A stretch of 64,000 nt of DNA from Escherichia phage REP4. Position 1 is the stretch's first letter. Every line of letters begins with the position of its first letter. Location: sequence record OQ174503.1; one strand, given 5' to 3'. A program made the translations under genes and the position numbers. Shown here in pieces: positions 4,534-53,340 of this stretch. A model generated the notes under the pieces. It was given only the letters and a program-made list of their open reading frames with translations. It was not told the origin of the DNA and did no database searches.

Positions 4534-4765
4534 ATTTAATCAGCAGCTTACAGACACTTTCATCTAGCGTAATTACCGTATCTGTATTACTGTGATATGA
4601 TTGTTTTTCAATTCGTTTAATTGCTAGTATAGTATCACTTATAAGATTAAGCTTATAAAGGAGCTCAGCTCCTGTTACCATAACACTGAGATTATCTTGC
4701 TTATCAGTATGCTTCTTTATACCATCTATTAGACGATTTAAATATTTTGAATTGATGTTAATCAT
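4505..4765 (-). CDS. Hypothetical protein (86 aa)
   Basis: ORF track. Confidence 0.45.
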   Translation of the reverse strand: MININSKYLNRLIDGIKKHTDKQDNLSVMVTGAELLYKLNLISDTILAIKRIEKQSYHSNTDTVITLDESVCKLLIKFEEAICGNN

Positions 4766-4771
4766 ATATCC

Positions 4772-6091
4772 TCACACATAAAACACATCATAACGACCAC
4801 GAGTGACACCAACATAAAGAAGCTGCTGAGCTAGTTCAGCATCTGCATAATGAATGCAAGGTGTATAGATAAAAGCACGGTCTACAGACATACCCTGAGC
4901 TTTATGGAATGTTGATGCGGGAAGTGCTTTCACTTTACTAAACTGTGATTTAGCATCCCAAAAATCGCTCCACGGAGCTTTTCCACCTTTATTCCAATTT
5001 TTATAAGTTTCTGCCGTTTTACCTAAAAATAAGTTAAACTTATACAGCTCTTCATCAGATGAAATTATTTTAATCTTTTCACGATAATATTCATCATCGC
5101 CGTAAGTTTCTACTGTTAAATCCCAATGACGAATTAGATATTCCCCAGAAACACCACGAGCTTTAACAAACGTCGATGTATATTCTGCTTCTATAATACG
5201 AACTAATTGTCCGTTATTAAAAATAATTTCTGACACAGGCTTTCCATCAATTTTATATGTTTTAATTAATGGTTCCTGCATTACAATAATTTCACCGACA
5301 ATAAAATCTTTATCAGTTTCAAAAATCTTTTTACGAATAATGCTATTTAACTTGTCAACAGATTTATTCGTAAATGCCATTACACGATTTTCAAACAAAT
5401 CATCTAGTGATTTGACGATTGAAAAATAATTTACCATAAAATCGCGTAAAGCGGTATCACCAGTAAATCCACGTACTCCATGTCCGTCAACAATTTTATC
5501 ATAAATCCACTTACCGTTACGAACATCAGTAGCTACATCAATAATAGGAGCATTACTGCGTTTAACTTCAGTGAGTTCACACTGATAAAAATCTTTATGT
5601 GTAAAGAATGGACTGATATAAGCAGTGTTTTCTCCTGGGTCAACGGGTCTAATTTGCTTATTATCGCCTATTCCAATTATAGTACACCACGGCGGGATAG
5701 TTGAAAGCAAAATTTTAAATAGCTTTCTATCATACATTGACACTTCGTCGCAGATTAATACCCTGCATTTAGCCAAATCTGGTACTTCTTTTTGTTCAAA
5801 AAGAACGTTTTCTTCGTATGTTACTGGGTTAATTTTAAGAATACTGTGAATAGTACTCGCTTCTTTCCCTGACAGTTTTGAAAGAATCTTTTTAGCTGCA
5901 TGAGTAGGAGCTGCTAAAATAATGCCAGTTTCGCCCGTAGATATTAAGGCTTCAATGATGAACTTAGTAAGAGTAGTCTTACCAGTACCAGCAGGTCCAT
6001 TAATAGTTACATGATGTTTCTTTTCTTTAATAGCCCTCATAACGATGTTAAAGGCATTTTTCTGGCCTTCGGTCAAATCATCAAATGTCAT
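4772..6091 (-). CDS. dda: Dda DNA helicase (SF1B), 439 aa
   Basis: Walker A GPAGTGKTT, Walker B LICDEVSM; 439 aa as in T4 Dda. Confidence 0.9.
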   Translation of the reverse strand: MTFDDLTEGQKNAFNIVMRAIKEKKHHVTINGPAGTGKTTLTKFIIEALISTGETGIILAAPTHAAKKILSKLSGKEASTIHSILKINPVTYEENVLFEQKEVPDLAKCRVLICDEVSMYDRKLFKILLSTIPPWCTIIGIGDNKQIRPVDPGENTAYISPFFTHKDFYQCELTEVKRSNAPIIDVATDVRNGKWIYDKIVDGHGVRGFTGDTALRDFMVNYFSIVKSLDDLFENRVMAFTNKSVDKLNSIIRKKIFETDKDFIVGEIIVMQEPLIKTYKIDGKPVSEIIFNNGQLVRIIEAEYTSTFVKARGVSGEYLIRHWDLTVETYGDDEYYREKIKIISSDEELYKFNLFLGKTAETYKNWNKGGKAPWSDFWDAKSQFSKVKALPASTFHKAQGMSVDRAFIYTPCIHYADAELAQQLLYVGVTRGRYDVFYV

Positions 6092-10959: not shown

Positions 10960-10967
10960 TATTTATA
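10960..10967 (-). promoter_or_regulatory. T4 late promoter TATAAATA (minus), ~30 nt upstream of soc start
   Basis: Plus strand reads tatttata at 10960-10967. Confidence 0.5.
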
Positions 10968-11137
10968 TCAGTCTTCAACGAAAACTTGCGCCAGGAATTC
11001 ATGTTCATCTTGAATTTGTTTATATAAAGCCATTACAGCATTTATATTAGAGCTATCTACTTTAAGCTGATAAGCATACAACTCGTATAAATTAATTAAA
11101 GCTTTTTGACGTCTAATAAATTCTTCTTTGGATATTT

Positions 11138-11341
11138 TCATTTTGAATGTTCTATAATTAATTTTAAGGCTTCTTCGCTGACAAAAATTTCATCAGGACC
11201 TTCTTCTACAACCCAATCAACCACACGAAGCTGATTAGATAAGAGCTCACATACGAGCTCCTTGTCATAATTTTTAAATAGCTGGTCAATACGTTTCTTG
11301 CGGGCTTTCTTAAGCTGGCGTTTATTTAAACGAGCCATCAA
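11138..11341 (-). CDS. Hypothetical protein (67 aa)
   Basis: ORF track. Confidence 0.5.
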   Translation of the reverse strand: MMARLNKRQLKKARKKRIDQLFKNYDKELVCELLSNQLRVVDWVVEEGPDEIFVSEEALKLIIEHSK

Positions 11342-14241: not shown

Positions 14242-14346
14242 GATAATCTCCTCAGTAGTTTATGTTTATATAGTATCTCAATTTTCAACAAAAGTAAACA
14301 CTAGTAGAAGCAAACAGACAAATTGCAATAATTGGTGATTTCAGTT

Positions 14347-14541
14347 TCATTCTTCTCCTCCTTCATGTTGATGAACATATTCTTTTTCAAGTCTAGAGCA
14401 CAAGTTTTCATATTCAACTAATAAAAGTGAATCAAGTGCGTTATTTCTATGCTGACACCGTTCTTGTAAAGAATCCATCTCTGAACGTTGTTCTTGTGTT
14501 AATAATTGATAACCTGATACTTTAGACATTTTGTTCTCCAT
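14347..14541 (-). CDS. Hypothetical protein (64 aa)
   Basis: ORF track. Confidence 0.45.
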   Translation of the reverse strand: MENKMSKVSGYQLLTQEQRSEMDSLQERCQHRNNALDSLLLVEYENLCSRLEKEYVHQHEGGEE

Positions 14542-14565
14542 TTACTCGTTTGTTTTGATAGGTCT

Positions 14566-14594
14566 ATAATAACATGTTTAAAACAAAAGTAAAC
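14566..14594 (-). promoter_or_regulatory. T4 early-type promoter (minus)
   Basis: gtaaac at 14589-14594; tataat/ataata at 14565-14571. Confidence 0.5.
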
Positions 14595-14848
14595 TATTTT
14601 ATTTCCTCAAGTTCGTTAATCAATAAAAGTTCTCTGACGCTAAAAACAAAGAAAAATGTGTTCCCATCAACCAGAGCATGACCGCTAATAGAACACCCTC
14701 TGCGGAATTTAGAAACTTCACAATCTAGAACTGTAAAAGGTTTTAATCCTATGACTTTAGCTGTGCGTCTATTCAGTTCACAACCACTCGCGAATTTTTC
14801 CAAATCTTCTTCTGATTTAAACTGATATTCTCTATTAACTAGCATCAT
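14594..14848 (-). CDS. Hypothetical protein (84 aa)
   Basis: ORF track. Confidence 0.5.
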   Translation of the reverse strand: MMLVNREYQFKSEEDLEKFASGCELNRRTAKVIGLKPFTVLDCEVSKFRRGCSISGHALVDGNTFFFVFSVRELLLINELEEIK

Positions 14849-14879
14849 TTTCTTTTCTCCGCGATTAGCTGATAGAATT

Positions 14880-14909
14880 ACTATAACACAACTCTATCAG
14901 CTTGTAAAC
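14880..14909 (-). promoter_or_regulatory. T4 early-type promoter (minus)
   Basis: gtaaac at 14904-14909; -10-like actata at 14880-14885. Confidence 0.45.
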
Positions 14910-14911
14910 TA

Positions 14912-15196
14912 CTATTTTACTAGCATCAATAGCTGTTTCTCTAACTTGACGATTTTACGAAAGTATCTTTTGCATTGGCGAATCTGTCGCTTCGTAGGGC
15001 GCACAGCAAACTTAATAAATTCCACTCGACCAAATGGAGGGCTTTCTTCTGCTGGAATATCTAACACCAATTCCCACGTATCTGCAACAAGTGCTTTGAA
15101 TTGAGTATTTTTCCTGACATTATATGGAGTAGGTTTAAATAAAACAATATGCATATTATCCTCGGCAATCCACTTCACATACTTTCTTGTCATCAA
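14912..15196 (-). CDS. Hypothetical protein (94 aa)
   Basis: ORF track. Confidence 0.5.
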   Translation of the reverse strand: MMTRKYVKWIAEDNMHIVLFKPTPYNVRKNTQFKALVADTWELVLDIPAEESPPFGRVEFIKFAVRPTKRQIRQCKRYFRKIVKLEKQLLMLVK

Positions 15197-20421: not shown

Positions 20422-20802
20422 TCACTTAGTCAAATTTTTTACGCATGAATTATAAGAATTCACTACATACTCCATCGGAGCATTTTTACCTGTACGCCAT
20501 TGGTAATTATTAGCCCAATTAGCCCAAAGCTCAGCGCAGTAGTTTTCAATTTTTTCTTCGCGTGTAATTACATCTGAATTACGATATGCTTGAGCAGATT
20601 CATCTGGGCGAATAGCTTCGTCAAAATTCGCCTGCATCTGTTCTACTGTCTGTTTTGGAGCTTCTTTATAACACTTGACGTTAGGATTATAAAATTTGCT
20701 TGAACAGTTTACAATTTTTCCTACATCAGACTGATTTACTACCGGTCCTTGAGCTACACATCCAGTAAGACCCAATACAATAACCAAAATAGCGATTTTC
20801 AT
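20422..20802 (-). CDS. Lipoprotein (126 aa)
   Basis: Signal peptide MKIAILVIVLGLTGC with lipobox. Confidence 0.6.
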   Translation of the reverse strand: MKIAILVIVLGLTGCVAQGPVVNQSDVGKIVNCSSKFYNPNVKCYKEAPKQTVEQMQANFDEAIRPDESAQAYRNSDVITREEKIENYCAELWANWANNYQWRTGKNAPMEYVVNSYNSCVKNLTK

Positions 20803-20812
20803 AATAATTTCC

Positions 20813-21049
20813 TCAAATACAAGTAGTAATTACTCCAGTAGTGCTTACACAGGTATTACCTAATTGAACACCCAACGTTCCATTAGTATTCATATGAAGA
20901 TTATCATCAATTTTTGTTGATACTTTACCATTCATGTGAATAATAGTATTAGATTCAATCACATTCTGAGTGTCATTTTCAATATCAATAAATGGAACAG
21001 TTGCTAATGCAACTAAACACGCTGCTAAACAACCATAAACAATTTTCAT
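20813..21049 (-). CDS. Small secreted protein (78 aa from ATG at 21049)
   Basis: MKIVYGCLAACLVALATVPF signal peptide; start preceded by cassette leader. Confidence 0.55.
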   Translation of the reverse strand: MKIVYGCLAACLVALATVPFIDIENDTQNVIESNTIIHMNGKVSTKIDDNLHMNTNGTLGVQLGNTCVSTTGVITTCI

Positions 21050-21140
21050 TTTATTCTCCAAATCCGTATCAGTTGATAGTTGTATAGTACCATGGAAGAA
21101 CGGGAATGTAAACAGTTTTGTGAAAAAAATTTTTAATGAA
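21050..21140 (-). repeat. Promoter-leader cassette copy with early promoter (GTTTAC at 21108-21113, TGGTACTAT -10)
   Basis: Near-identical to 47550..47650 and 62373..62470; ends at TTGGAGAATAAA-ATG. Confidence 0.6.
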
Positions 21141-35506: not shown

Positions 35507-35830
35507 TTAGTCTTCTATGATATCTCTATCATATCCAAGTGAAATGAGAGTTTCTTTGAAGTGTTTAATGTTCTTTTGTCTAGAATCATTAATGAAAATG
35601 ACTGGATAACGAATGTTAAGAGATGTGAATCCAGCGCGTTTAGCAAGAGATACAATCAGTGGACGATCATACTCAATCTTACCATTATTTGTAAGAACTT
35701 TATAGAAAGTAAAAGGAGCATTGAGCTCCTTTAGAAGTTTTGTAACTGATTGACATCCAGGACAACGACCTACTTCATCTGGAATTCCATAGACTTCAAT
35801 CTTATTCTTTAAGTTCGAGTTTTGTTCCAC
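35507..35830 (-). CDS. Glutaredoxin-like protein (CPGC active site), NrdH-like; start uncertain
   Basis: KIEVYGIPDEVGRCPGCQSV redox motif; no in-frame ATG near N-terminus, GTG at 35830 proposed. Confidence 0.5.
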   Translation of the reverse strand: MEQNSNLKNKIEVYGIPDEVGRCPGCQSVTKLLKELNAPFTFYKVLTNNGKIEYDRPLIVSLAKRAGFTSLNIRYPVIFINDSRQKNIKHFKETLISLGYDRDIIED

Positions 35831-36113
35831 GAGAAATAATTCCTTGATAAGCCCAGTATGGCGGGTTAACAGAATCATCGCCAGAATTTTCTTCAGGAAA
35901 ATAAACCTGGATAACAAATCCAGATGCGTCAAAGGTAAAATACACCGTAGGTAATTCACCTAACAATTCAGCACGGTTATTAATTTCTTCGAGTTCTCGT
36001 TCTCGTCCAGCCCAAAAACTAGGATTTAGACTACATTCATAGAAATAATAGTCATTACCGAACATATCAAAACCCTTCCAACTCTCTACCACATACCGCT
36101 CAAAACTAATCAT
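35802..36113 (-). CDS. Hypothetical protein (103 aa)
   Basis: ORF track. Confidence 0.5.
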   Translation of the reverse strand: MISFERYVVESWKGFDMFGNDYYFYECSLNPSFWAGRERELEEINNRAELLGELPTVYFTFDASGFVIQVYFPEENSGDDSVNPPYWAYQGIISRGTKLELKE

Positions 36114-36115
36114 AA

Positions 36116-36355
36116 TTAAGCCTTTTTATCAAGAACAGCATTCAGCTTGTTAGTAATTTTATCCAGACGCTCATTGAACTCACTAGAAGATAAGCCTTTT
36201 TCTGGAGAAATTAAGCTAATCACGAAAAATATAGCAATAAAAGGAATAAGAAAAATAGCACCAACTGCCATAAACAAAAAGAACGTTACAGTTGTAAGAA
36301 AATCAGCTAAACCTTTACGAAATTTATACATATTTACCCTTAATTGATTAACCAA
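36116..36355 (-). CDS. Small membrane protein (79 aa)
   Basis: ORF track; one hydrophobic helix. Confidence 0.5.
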   Translation of the reverse strand: MVNQLRVNMYKFRKGLADFLTTVTFFLFMAVGAIFLIPFIAIFFVISLISPEKGLSSSEFNERLDKITNKLNAVLDKKA

Positions 36356-40865: not shown

Positions 40866-41154
40866 ATCGATGTTTACAATGACGACATTTATAACGAAGA
40901 TTACTAGTCTGCCAATGAACTAATTGTACCTGTTCAGTACCACATTTTGGGCAGTTCGGAACATTCTTAGAAGCCCTTTCGCGGCGTTCAACCATAGCCA
41001 TAATAGCATCCCAGGCTGGAGGTTTAAAATCTAAATCGTCACAACCATGAATCTTTCCACGCATTTCTAAATCGTCTTCTTCACCATCCATAATAATTTT
41101 AATTAGACTGGAATTACTTGAAGCTGCAATATCTTCTAATAAGCGCTTTTTCAT
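40837..41154 (-). CDS. Zinc-ribbon protein (105 aa)
   Basis: CPKCG...CRHCKH. Confidence 0.5.
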
Positions 41155-42083
41155 TTCAATACCTCAATAGCATTTCGTAAACCGTCAGCTTTTGCATTCA
41201 GAGCTTTTAATGATTTAGTTTGTTCTGCAATCCGGGCTTCGACTTCTTTCAGACGAGATTTGAGATATTCGCGTTCTTCTCTTAAGTTATCAACTTTTTC
41301 TGCTTTAGGCTCTTTAATAGGCTTAGGCTTATACTCATTAGGGTTCTTCAACTTAATTTGAATGTGAGAACTGTATAACATTGAACCATTATCTTCGGTT
41401 TCATCATACGTTTCTACTACGTCCATGATTCTTAACATCATGCGAAGTTTATAAGACAGCGAACGAATGGTTTTGTTGCGCTTATTAATTTCTTCGGCTT
41501 TCATGGTACCGAGATTACGTGAGTAGTAATAAGGAACCTGGATATCAATTGATAATGATGCGTTACCATTACCGGTTGGTTTGAATACTGCAGTAACCCA
41601 ATCTTTAACATGAACTTTATTTGTACGATCATCGCCGCCTGTGAATAATTTACGTGAATGTTTAAAAAGCATATTCACTTGGTTATTGAATTCACAAGCA
41701 AATTTATCAGCAAATTTAGTTTCAGGAATGGTAGATAACCAATCAGCTAAATGGGTCTTTTTAACATCGTTAACAATAGTAAATTCAACCAAATCAGTTA
41801 TAGATGTCGCAGATTTAATGAAGCTTGGCTTCATAAAGTTTTTAATGTTATCGCGAGCTACAGTAGAAGATAACATACGAGAACGTTTAAACCATTCAAG
41901 CAAATTGCCTAACGAATGAGAATAAGCGTTTTGAGTATCTTTACAGATATGATTTTCCTGGCCAACATATTGAAGGAAATCACGAAGAATATTATTGATT
42001 ACTGCTCTGTGCCCGATTTGATAATTACGGTGTTTAGTAATAAGACTGTCAAAATAATCAATATAATGTTTACGAGTTTTCAT
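41151..42083 (-). CDS. Coiled-coil-tailed protein, paralog family member 1 (310 aa)
   Basis: C-terminal heptad-rich segment [45 protein letters not shown]. Confidence 0.6.
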   Translation of the reverse strand: MKTRKHYIDYFDSLITKHRNYQIGHRAVINNILRDFLQYVGQENHICKDTQNAYSHSLGNLLEWFKRSRMLSSTVARDNIKNFMKPSFIKSATSITDLVEFTIVNDVKKTHLADWLSTIPETKFADKFACEFNNQVNMLFKHSRKLFTGGDDRTNKVHVKDWVTAVFKPTGNGNASLSIDIQVPYYYSRNLGTMKAEEINKRNKTIRSLSYKLRMMLRIMDVVETYDETEDNGSMLYSSHIQIKLKNPNEYKPKPIKEPKAEKVDNLREEREYLKSRLKEVEARIAEQTKSLKALNAKADGLRNAIEVLK

Positions 42084-47549: not shown

Positions 47550-47650
47550 TTTATTCTCCAAATCCGTATCAGTTGATAGTTGTATAGTACCATAAAGCTT
47601 TATGCCTGTAAACCGTTTTGTGAAAAAAAAAAAAATTTGAAATAAAAAAA
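47550..47650 (-). repeat. Promoter-leader cassette copy (GTTTAC at 47608-47613, TGGTACTAT -10) plus A13 tract
   Basis: ~90% identical to 21050..21140 and 62373..62470. Confidence 0.6.
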
Positions 47651-47652
47651 AG

Positions 47653-47670
47653 GGAGCCCGAAGGCTCCCT
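47653..47670 (-). terminator. UUCG hairpin terminator after nucleotidyltransferase gene
   Basis: Minus GGGAGCC-UUCG-GGCUCCC followed by U8. Confidence 0.75.
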
Positions 47671-51223: not shown

Positions 51224-51241
51224 AGTCTCCCGAAGGAGACT
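51224..51241 (-). terminator. UUCG hairpin terminator
   Basis: Minus AGUCUCC-UUCG-GGAGACU followed by UUUUUU. Confidence 0.7.
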
Positions 51242-51245
51242 AATG

Positions 51246-51632
51246 TTATTCGAGGGAAAGAAGATATTTACTCTGGTAAAACATTCCAGTAATATCATCT
51301 ATCGTGCTTTGAATGGCTGGAGGCATTTCTTTGTAAATGCTATTAGATTGGTCTAGTATGCGATCAATCATTTTAATTGTGTCGGTAGGAAGTTTACTAG
51401 CATCTGGAATTGAAGGTGTGTATTTTCTACCAGAATACCCCAAATACTGCTCACCAAATTTATCAATCAAATCTGGCAACTCAGAGAAAATAAAATCGTA
51501 TGCCTTGTGTCTAGCATAACTTTTAGTTTCAAAATGCGCAGAATGAAAATAAGCTTGCGCAGCCATTAATAAACCTAAGTATTCATCTGCCTTTGAAGGT
51601 TTTCCACTTTGTGAAAAGTCGCTGAATTTCAT
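51246..51632 (-). CDS. Hypothetical protein (128 aa), rI.-1 position
   Basis: ORF track; ATG overlaps end of rI reading frame. Confidence 0.55.
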
Positions 51633-51923
51633 TCAGTCTCCAATTTAATGTTCATAATTCTAGCGTATGATTGTGCCATCTCCGCGCCTCGTTCTATACA
51701 TTCAAAATCAGAAGAACACGGGTCATTTTTTATAAGTCGTTCGCATAAAACTATAGAACTGTTCAGATGATTCTACGCTTTTATTTTCAAAAAGCATATA
51801 AACGTGTCTAATACCAGATTCCATAAATTTATCAAAATGAGGATCGACATTCGCTTCAATTGGCGGAGATAAAGCAAACGCTAATCCTAGCATGGCAAAT
51901 AGTGCCGTTGCTTTTAAGGCCAT
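51629..51923 (-). pseudogene. rI: rI (lysis-inhibition antiholin) disrupted by +1 frameshift in an A6 run
   Basis: N-terminal 66 aa match RI signal-anchor, then stop after TATAAAAAATGA; next frame continues [32 protein letters not shown] to a stop at 51629. Confidence 0.6.
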
Positions 51924-51935
51924 AAAGGCCTCCTA

Positions 51936-52148
51936 TCATTTTTGTCCTGTATTTACTTTATGCCGATGCACGGCCTTAACTTTATCAAGGTATTTTTCAA
52001 AATTTCGCAATCTAGTATAGTCTGCCGGAGATTGGTTAAGTGATACTTCTCGACGCAAAGCTGAAATGATATTTCCAACTTCCCTACGAATTTCATCTAA
52101 TTGAAGAACAGTAAGATTGCGAAGTTGCTTTTCAGTTAATTGTAGCAT
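51936..52148 (-). CDS. Hypothetical protein (70 aa), rI.1 position
   Basis: ORF track. Confidence 0.5.
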
Positions 52149-52190: not shown

Positions 52191-52772
52191 CTAACCGAGC
52201 TTTTTAGTTAATTCATTCCAATGTTTTCTACACAAAGAAACATAAATTTCATCACCAATACAGATTTGATTACCTTCTTTAACTGGTGTTCCATCTTCCA
52301 TTAATCGAGCTGTCATAATCGCTTTTTTACCGCAATGACAAACTGCCTTTAGTTCAATAAGTTTATCTGCAATCGCCAAAAGTTCTTTAGAACCTTCAAA
52401 TAATTTTCCAGCGAAATCAGTCCTTAGACCATAAGCCATAACAGGAACATTATATGTATCGACAATTCGGCTTAATTGATGTACCTGTTCAGTTTTTAAA
52501 AACTGAGCTTCATCTACAAATACACAATGAATATCTTTTTGTGCTTCAGCCCATTTATAGAACTCAAAAATATCCATATCATCCGTAATAATATTCGCTT
52601 CCTGCTTAATTCCAATGCGAGAAACGACTTCACAGACAGAATCACGAGTATCAATAGCAGGCTTAAGAACTAATACACCCATTCCGCGTTCTTTATAATT
52701 ATGCGCAGCAGTCAAAAGAGAAGCAGATTTTCCAGCATTCATTGCTGCATAAGTAAAAATTAAACTCGCCAT
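52191..52772 (-). CDS. tk: Thymidine kinase (193 aa)
   Basis: P-loop AAMNAGKS, VDEAQF Walker B, C-terminal zinc cysteines. Confidence 0.9.
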   Translation of the reverse strand: MASLIFTYAAMNAGKSASLLTAAHNYKERGMGVLVLKPAIDTRDSVCEVVSRIGIKQEANIITDDMDIFEFYKWAEAQKDIHCVFVDEAQFLKTEQVHQLSRIVDTYNVPVMAYGLRTDFAGKLFEGSKELLAIADKLIELKAVCHCGKKAIMTARLMEDGTPVKEGNQICIGDEIYVSLCRKHWNELTKKLG

Positions 52773-52967: not shown

Positions 52968-53133
52968 ATATTAATTTCCAGAAGTTTTAAAATAATTCGC
53001 TTTTGCTTAAATATTTCCATAGTTAAATGATCAGTATCTTTTTGACCAATTCCGATGGCAAAACCTTTATTAACAGCGAGTTCAATTAAATTATCAAGCT
53101 CACGTAACACTTCATATTGTAACTCAGAACTAT

Positions 53134-53340
53134 TCATTTTGGTTTACCTTCTTTAACAAAATCGGGATAAGGATAAAATCCTGAATAAAATCCTTCACCT
53201 TTATGATTAATGCATCCTTTATTAGAGCAATAGCACCAATAATCGAAATCACAAGCCATTTCATCATTGCATAAAGCAAAAACAACTGGCCATTTACACT
53301 TTTCACAATGTGCATTTTTAAGAATGCTAGTTTGGCTCAT
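53134..53340 (-). CDS. Cys-rich small protein (68 aa from ATG at 53340)
   Basis: CEKCKW...CNDEMACDFDYWCYCSNKGC; chosen over overlapping hydrophobic frame. Confidence 0.45.
   Translation of the reverse strand: MSQTSILKNAHCEKCKWPVVFALCNDEMACDFDYWCYCSNKGCINHKGEGFYSGFYPYPDFVKEGKPK

Follow-up and report, generated by a model that had tools for sequence, protein, structure and literature searches.

The rI lysis-inhibition gene of Escherichia phage REP4, as recorded, carries one extra A in a homopolymer run, and we consider it probable that this is a genuine loss-of-function allele, created by slipped-strand addition of the A, and that REP4 is a rapid-lysis phage. Positions refer to the 64,000-nt stretch of the REP4 record OQ174503.1 that was analysed (the window), in which rI lies on the minus strand. 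The gene starts with an ATG at 51923–51921, and a Shine–Dalgarno sequence, AGGAGG, can be read directly at 51929–51934 (minus strand), 5 nt 5′ of the start. The open reading frame read from the sequence (51723–51923, minus strand) specifies 66 residues and a stop. Its product, MALKATALFAMLGLAFALSPPIEANVDPHFDKFMESGIRHVYMLFENKSVESSEQFYSFMRTTYKK, is exactly the protein deposited as WBY53229.1, 'lysis inhibition [Escherichia phage REP4]', from a contig of 166,772 bp; WBY53211.1 and WBY53213.1, deposited for the same phage, likewise correspond to proteins encoded in the window.

The frame runs through an A6 homopolymer on the minus strand (51726–51731, T6 on the plus strand), which is the site of the +1 insertion, and ends immediately afterwards at a premature TGA (51723–51725, minus strand; context AAA AAA UGA C) that is a product of the frameshift. 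From 51727, the +1 frame encodes NDPCSS...KLETE, the same peptide as in T4 RI. This out-of-frame remnant (51629–51727, minus strand) corresponds to N66–E97 and contains helix 3, Cys69, Cys75 and the original stop, a TGA at 51631–51629 that overlaps the rI.-1 ATG at 51632–51630 with the ATGA arrangement kept. The first-pass annotation had described a frame that stops right after the A6 run and a next frame that carries the periplasmic part of RI to a stop overlapping the downstream ATG, and on re-reading both the description and the coordinates are exact.

Aligned with the rI genes of T4 (NC_000866) and vB_EcoM_G50, REP4 rI has one extra A and no further indels, so that A6 versus A5 is the single indel relative to T4. 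The run is A5 in T4, G50 and 11B_SA_NWU, as in all other relatives inspected, and A6 in REP4. Deletion of one A in silico yields a 97-aa RI, as had been proposed. REP4 rI shares its genomic position, Shine–Dalgarno sequence and start with T4 rI (NP_049717), and the repaired protein is 96.9% identical to T4-type RI (T4T record), the differences being S15A, V17A and S21P, all in the signal peptide. It departs from T4 in the extra A at codons 65–66, which leaves a 66-aa open reading frame and places helix 3 and Cys69/Cys75 out of frame.

Identity and neighbourhood of the gene

The identification of the gene as rI is supported by a Pfam match, identity to crystallized chains and T4 gene order. Against PF24205 (Antiholin; gathering cut-off 27), the truncated product of 66 aa reaches 51.5 bits and the repaired protein of 97 aa reaches 82.2 bits; over residues 25–97, the repaired protein shows 100% identity to the PDB antiholin chains 6PSK, 6PX4, 6PXE and 6PSH. 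The repaired RI is at least 99% identical to proteins in 194 phage records, with 100% identity in the sampled ones (ime09, HP3, EcNP1 and MLF4). An 801-nt region around rI has matches in 502 phage records at 95–99% identity, the best of which span 800 nt, and this breadth indicates homology rather than chance. Reference RI proteins do not end at ...RTTYKK, where the REP4 product does: in a tblastn search with the 97-aa query, 729 of 742 records align over 80% or more of its length, and all 60 sampled rows align in a single piece. The repaired REP4 rI nucleotide sequence has no identical partner in the phage collection, the best matches being at 99.0% (ime09 and SHFML-26). In a separate observation, the 66-aa fragment falls in a 90%-identity cluster of 560 members, of which those listed are unrelated 173-aa T4-like hypothetical proteins; this cluster looks like an artefact of short-sequence clustering and was set aside.

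Residues 1–24 of RI, MALKATALFAMLGLAFALSPPIEA, form a hydrophobic N-terminal export signal with predicted cleavage at ...IEA|N, and the REP4 allele of this signal is present in many intact RI proteins. The signal-anchor description of the N-terminus in the first-pass annotation is dated, since the RI N-terminus has been reported to be a signal peptide that can be cleaved, and not a signal-anchor (SAR) sequence (Mehner-Breitfeld et al. 2021, PMC8385771).

In REP4, as in T4, the genes lie in the order tk–rI.1–rI–rI.-1. All four are on the minus strand of the window, with tk (thymidine kinase, 193 aa; 52191–52772) as the synteny anchor, rI.1 (70 aa; 51936–52148) as the intact upstream neighbour and rI.-1 (DUF5856, 128 aa; 51246–51632), also intact, downstream. 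A terminator-like hairpin and T-run on the same strand at 51224–51241, 3′ of rI.-1, lies where a terminator is annotated in G50 and would close the rI.1–rI–rI.-1 transcription unit. The rI.-1 ATG overlaps the rI stop (ATGA) in the wild type, whereas 90 nt (positions 51722–51633) lie between the premature stop and this ATG in REP4. Translational coupling from rI to rI.-1 would thus be lost, but rI.-1 still has a ribosome-binding site, GGAG, of its own. In each of the 10 contigs with the identical rI.-1 protein, rI is intact at 97 aa.

REP4 is a T4-like Tequatrovirus, and its closest record over 25 kb in the phage collection searched is vB_EcoM_G50, at 96.9% identity. Several segments of the window have no G50 counterpart (1366–1567, 4542–4772, 10967–11319, 14300–14933, 20802–21042, 35806–36131 and 52968–53336); lying between conserved early genes, they look like the mosaic insertions or replacements that are typical of hyperplastic regions in Tequatrovirus. 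A 310-aa protein (41151–42083), otherwise found only in REP4 by name, is also encoded on short Logan contigs from SRR33249075 and SRR33249076 (2025 runs), where its neighbours are partly different and the contigs do not reach rI. REP4-like modules therefore circulate in other samples.

Effect of the truncation on RI

The mutant gene encodes the signal peptide, residues 25–65 and one additional Lys. Residues 66–97 are not encodable in frame, and the full three-helix periplasmic domain with Cys69/Cys75 in a single open reading frame of ∼97 codons is absent from REP4 rI. In AlphaFold2 models built from single sequences, which are good for helix placement only and not for stability, full-length RI (P0016) has helices at 28–44, 54–66 and 72–96, and the 66-aa fragment has helices at 28–47 and 53–64; no residue of the fragment reaches a pLDDT of at least 90, versus 33 in the full-length model. 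The truncation thus takes away the longest helix (helix 3, ∼72–96) together with Cys69 and Cys75, which probably form a conserved disulfide (PMC11413866).

Mutagenesis has identified F30, M34, Y42, S53/E54, F56 and Y57 as residues that matter for inhibition of the holin T, and has shown that G79A and Y86A/L do not impair lysis inhibition (PMC11413866). All seven of these interface 1 residues (F30, M34, Y42, S53, E54, F56 and Y57) precede the break and are retained in the 66-aa product, and G79 and Y86 fall in the part that is lost. Because the binding residues lie before the break and the substitutions at G79 and Y86 are harmless, we infer loss of function from loss of the fold. Helix 3 and Cys69/Cys75 represent more than 40% of the periplasmic domain, and the truncated product is expected to misfold and be degraded.

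Probable origin of the allele by slippage

Homopolymer runs are classic frameshift hot spots in T4, as formalized in the Streisinger model, and Benzer and Pribnow reportedly found rII hot spots at A runs. Null mutations in rI give the r phenotype (Hershey 1946; Paddison 1998). The most probable history of the REP4 allele would begin with strand slippage in the A5 run at rI codons 65–66, which added one A. The truncated RI would then be misfolded and degraded, the holin T would not be held closed after superinfection, and REP4, lacking lysis inhibition, would form large, sharp-edged r-type plaques. The allele probably reached fixation in a bottleneck (plaque picking, for instance) or by selection for short latent periods. 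By analogy, REP4 would share the mechanism, the r-gene target and the expected loss of lysis inhibition with classical T4 rI r mutants (e.g. r48) and the rII A-run hot spots. The classical mutants are laboratory stocks, whereas REP4 is a wild isolate whose lesion also occurs in a gut metagenome. Burch et al. (2011) are said to have described rI mutational spectra; our literature search on such spectra returned nothing usable, and no literature on REP4 or its phenotype was found.

A second A6 allele in a pangolin gut metagenome

A gene for the identical 66-aa product, again with A6, is present on the Logan contig SRR23924988_4805, and a further Logan contig also encodes this product. The metagenomic run SRR23924988 (Illumina NovaSeq) comes from the faeces of a wild ground pangolin (sample PAN TS488, Tswalu Kalahari, South Africa; PMC10654083). 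Over tk–rI–rI.-1, the contig is 97.1% identical to the REP4 window, with 45 mismatches and no gaps, and identity is 92.4% further upstream. Within rI, 8 SNPs separate the two, every one of them silent in the relevant frames, and they include one 4 nt upstream and one 13 nt downstream of the run.

The repaired rI of the pangolin contig is identical at 294 of 294 positions to the intact rI of vB_EcoM_11B_SA_NWU (OR062527.1), a phage from cattle faeces in South Africa, and over 3695 nt the two are 99.95% identical, differing by one mismatch and the extra A. Each A6 allele sits among A5 relatives. A shared origin of the two A6 alleles, by descent or by gene conversion, was rejected: with the SNPs that flank the run, a recombined patch would have to be shorter than 17 nt, and one of the alleles is an intact sequence to which only the A has been added. 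As judged from these sequence comparisons, there were at least two separate A5 to A6 events, each on its own allele background, and one of them is seen in short-read data from an uncultured community. With the same insertion on separate lineages, the rI A run appears to be a recurrent slippage site. The pangolin contig could in principle derive from index hopping or from contamination by a laboratory phage library.

Mutation or sequencing error

An alternative that we regard as unlikely, at a level that still demands attention, is that a homopolymer error, made in sequencing or assembly, put the extra A into the REP4 record and that the phage really has A5 and normal lysis inhibition. The lesion is a one-nucleotide change in homopolymer length, a typical nanopore, Ion Torrent or 454 error, and A6 is found in no other record among ∼500 Tequatrovirus genomes. 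Several intergenic homopolymers also differ in length from G50 (e.g. at 21128, 47630–47650 and 62389), and the downstream rI frame is perfectly kept; the undamaged out-of-frame C-terminal remnant fits a very recent event and equally fits a sequencing error.

The state of the rest of the window speaks against such an error. There are 439 A/T runs of at least 5 nt in the 64 kb, of which 66 are at least 6 nt long, and systematic homopolymer errors would probably have broken several genes given this number of runs. When the minus-strand open reading frames of G50 (at least 45 aa) were compared with the window by tblastn, 132 of 151 aligned full-length in a single frame, and rI was the sole annotated G50 gene with its match split over two frames. 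In a blastn comparison with G50, the other indels that are not multiples of three were intergenic, at gene junctions, compensated within a few bases or at ragged block edges, leaving the rI indel at 51726 as the only uncompensated one well within a conserved annotated coding sequence. One split gene, the only conserved open reading frame broken, among 439 runs argues against an assembly prone to homopolymer error.

Two further points weigh against a miscall. An independent assembly of a different phage, built from Illumina reads, contains the very same change, so that the A6 state does occur in real DNA. In addition, rI nulls are visibly selectable, and rI carries other lesions in other genomes. 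Given that no gene of the window other than rI is split and that the same insertion recurs independently in Illumina data, the evidence leans towards a real mutation.

Two side observations concern other sites. The longest homopolymers of the window, A13 and A8 runs, lie in an intergenic stretch at 47620–47660 where G50 is much shorter (6-nt and 2-nt gaps); this stretch adjoins a terminator-like region and could be genuine or assembly-sensitive. In G50, a coding sequence near rIIA, G50_00003 (2447–2584), is annotated by its depositors as 'frameshift' and falls outside the range of the REP4 window.

Frequency of A6 and of other rI lesions

Two context-specific queries for A6 in the phage collection (204 and 305 records) returned no match at 100% identity. 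Exact and degenerate A6 patterns likewise gave no matches in IMG/VR, JGI metagenome contigs or GTDB genomes. The wild-type A5 pattern had just 6 matches in IMG/VR and 10 in JGI, and the A6 zeros in those two collections consequently carry little weight.

Independent inactivating lesions in rI are present in several otherwise intact T4-like genomes. In vB_EcoM_KAW1E185 (NC_054922.1, 56316–56610), a T has been added at rI codon 12, making this phage probably another rI-null isolate; its RefSeq coding sequence, labelled 'lysis inhibition', is an 89-aa remnant that uses a downstream start and lacks the start of the signal peptide. A T has been lost at codon 42 in ERZ28663843 scaffold_53 (L022, 166,904 bp) and in Logan contig SRR22027797_10919 (L023, reported in 5 samples). 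This deletion, in TATATG within GTTTATATG on a T4-like allele, splits rI into open reading frames of 41 and 55 aa. Logan contig L026 has lost a T within the rI signal peptide. In P0024 (102 aa, 'DUF5856 family protein [Shigella sonnei]'), RI residues 1–33 run in frame into the C-terminal portion of RI.-1, a fusion that appears to be caused by a deletion between the DKF-encoding repeats of rI and rI.-1; the contig is phage-sized (166,862 bp) and filed under a bacterial assembly. These broken alleles differ from that of REP4 in the site and type of the lesion, and A5 to A6 is the only change seen twice on different backgrounds.

Could the A6 allele be functional?

A second alternative, which we consider extremely unlikely, is that the A6 allele is functional, either through +1 slippage of tRNA-Lys on A AAA AAA UGA C or because the 66-aa fragment itself inhibits the holin T. 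A +1 slip of tRNA-Lys from the first AAA would re-pair perfectly on the A run and give exactly wild-type RI, and frameshift suppression that is not programmed can reach appreciable levels in E. coli (PMC10861913). REP4 rI thus has a slippery P-site codon followed by a poorly recognized stop, UGA then C, the weak termination context found in prfB. The likeness to the CUU UGA C site of prfB (RF2), in which a slippery codon precedes UGA C and a +1 shift leads into the downstream frame, is a resemblance only, as REP4 rI differs in lacking an upstream Shine–Dalgarno stimulator, phylogenetic conservation and autoregulatory logic.

Upstream of the A6 run (…UUUAUGCGAACGACUUAU…) there is no Shine–Dalgarno-like stimulator, and no GGAGG- or AGGGGG-like motif is found in the 20 nt that precede it. 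The local RNA fold is not unusual (z = −1.55), the productive window for a +1 slip is only ∼15 codons, and A6 is short for transcriptional slippage or ribosome sliding. The absence of A6 from other records, together with the lack of a Shine–Dalgarno sequence or unusual RNA structure, makes programmed recoding unlikely, and a prfB-like programmed frameshift was rejected for want of a stimulator and of conservation.

An active fragment would be consistent with retention of the signal peptide and all interface 1 residues and with the two helices, 28–47 and 53–64, still predicted by AlphaFold2, and the allele has been found twice, once apparently in nature. The model of the fragment is, however, of lower confidence than that of full-length RI, the arrangement is conserved in no clade, and one of the A6 alleles is simply an intact allele plus an insertion.

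If A6 were functional, the A run might serve to turn lysis inhibition on and off, or to dim it, in a reversible way. That the A5 run at codons 65–66 is a natural reversible switch, with populations flipping between lysis inhibition-proficient (A5) and -deficient (A6) states, seems to us very unlikely. The tract is 5–6 nt long and has undergone two independent A5 to A6 events. With 2 runs of at least 5 nt in 294 nt, rI matches the window background of 6.9 per kb and is not enriched in mutable repeats, so its run density gives no sign of a designed contingency locus. Were the switch real, the A6 state could dominate gut communities such as that of the wild pangolin, where superinfection would be rare and short latent periods would pay, and occasional +1 slippage of tRNA-Lys on the A6 run might still supply a little wild-type RI.

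Implications of a probable rI-null isolate

The reading that we favour is that REP4 carries a real, inactivating slippage mutation in rI. The lesion itself is textbook T4 genetics; what is modestly new is that it has recurred independently, possibly in nature. In T-even phages, the length of the latent period, the size of the burst and the type of plaque are all set by lysis inhibition, and an rI-null isolate would therefore behave differently in host-range, therapy and ecology experiments, with faster lysis, smaller bursts and clearer plaques. The REP4 record should flag rI as disrupted instead of listing a 66-aa 'lysis inhibition' protein. More broadly, variants defective in lysis inhibition may reach high frequency outside the laboratory, which bears on when lysis inhibition pays in nature.
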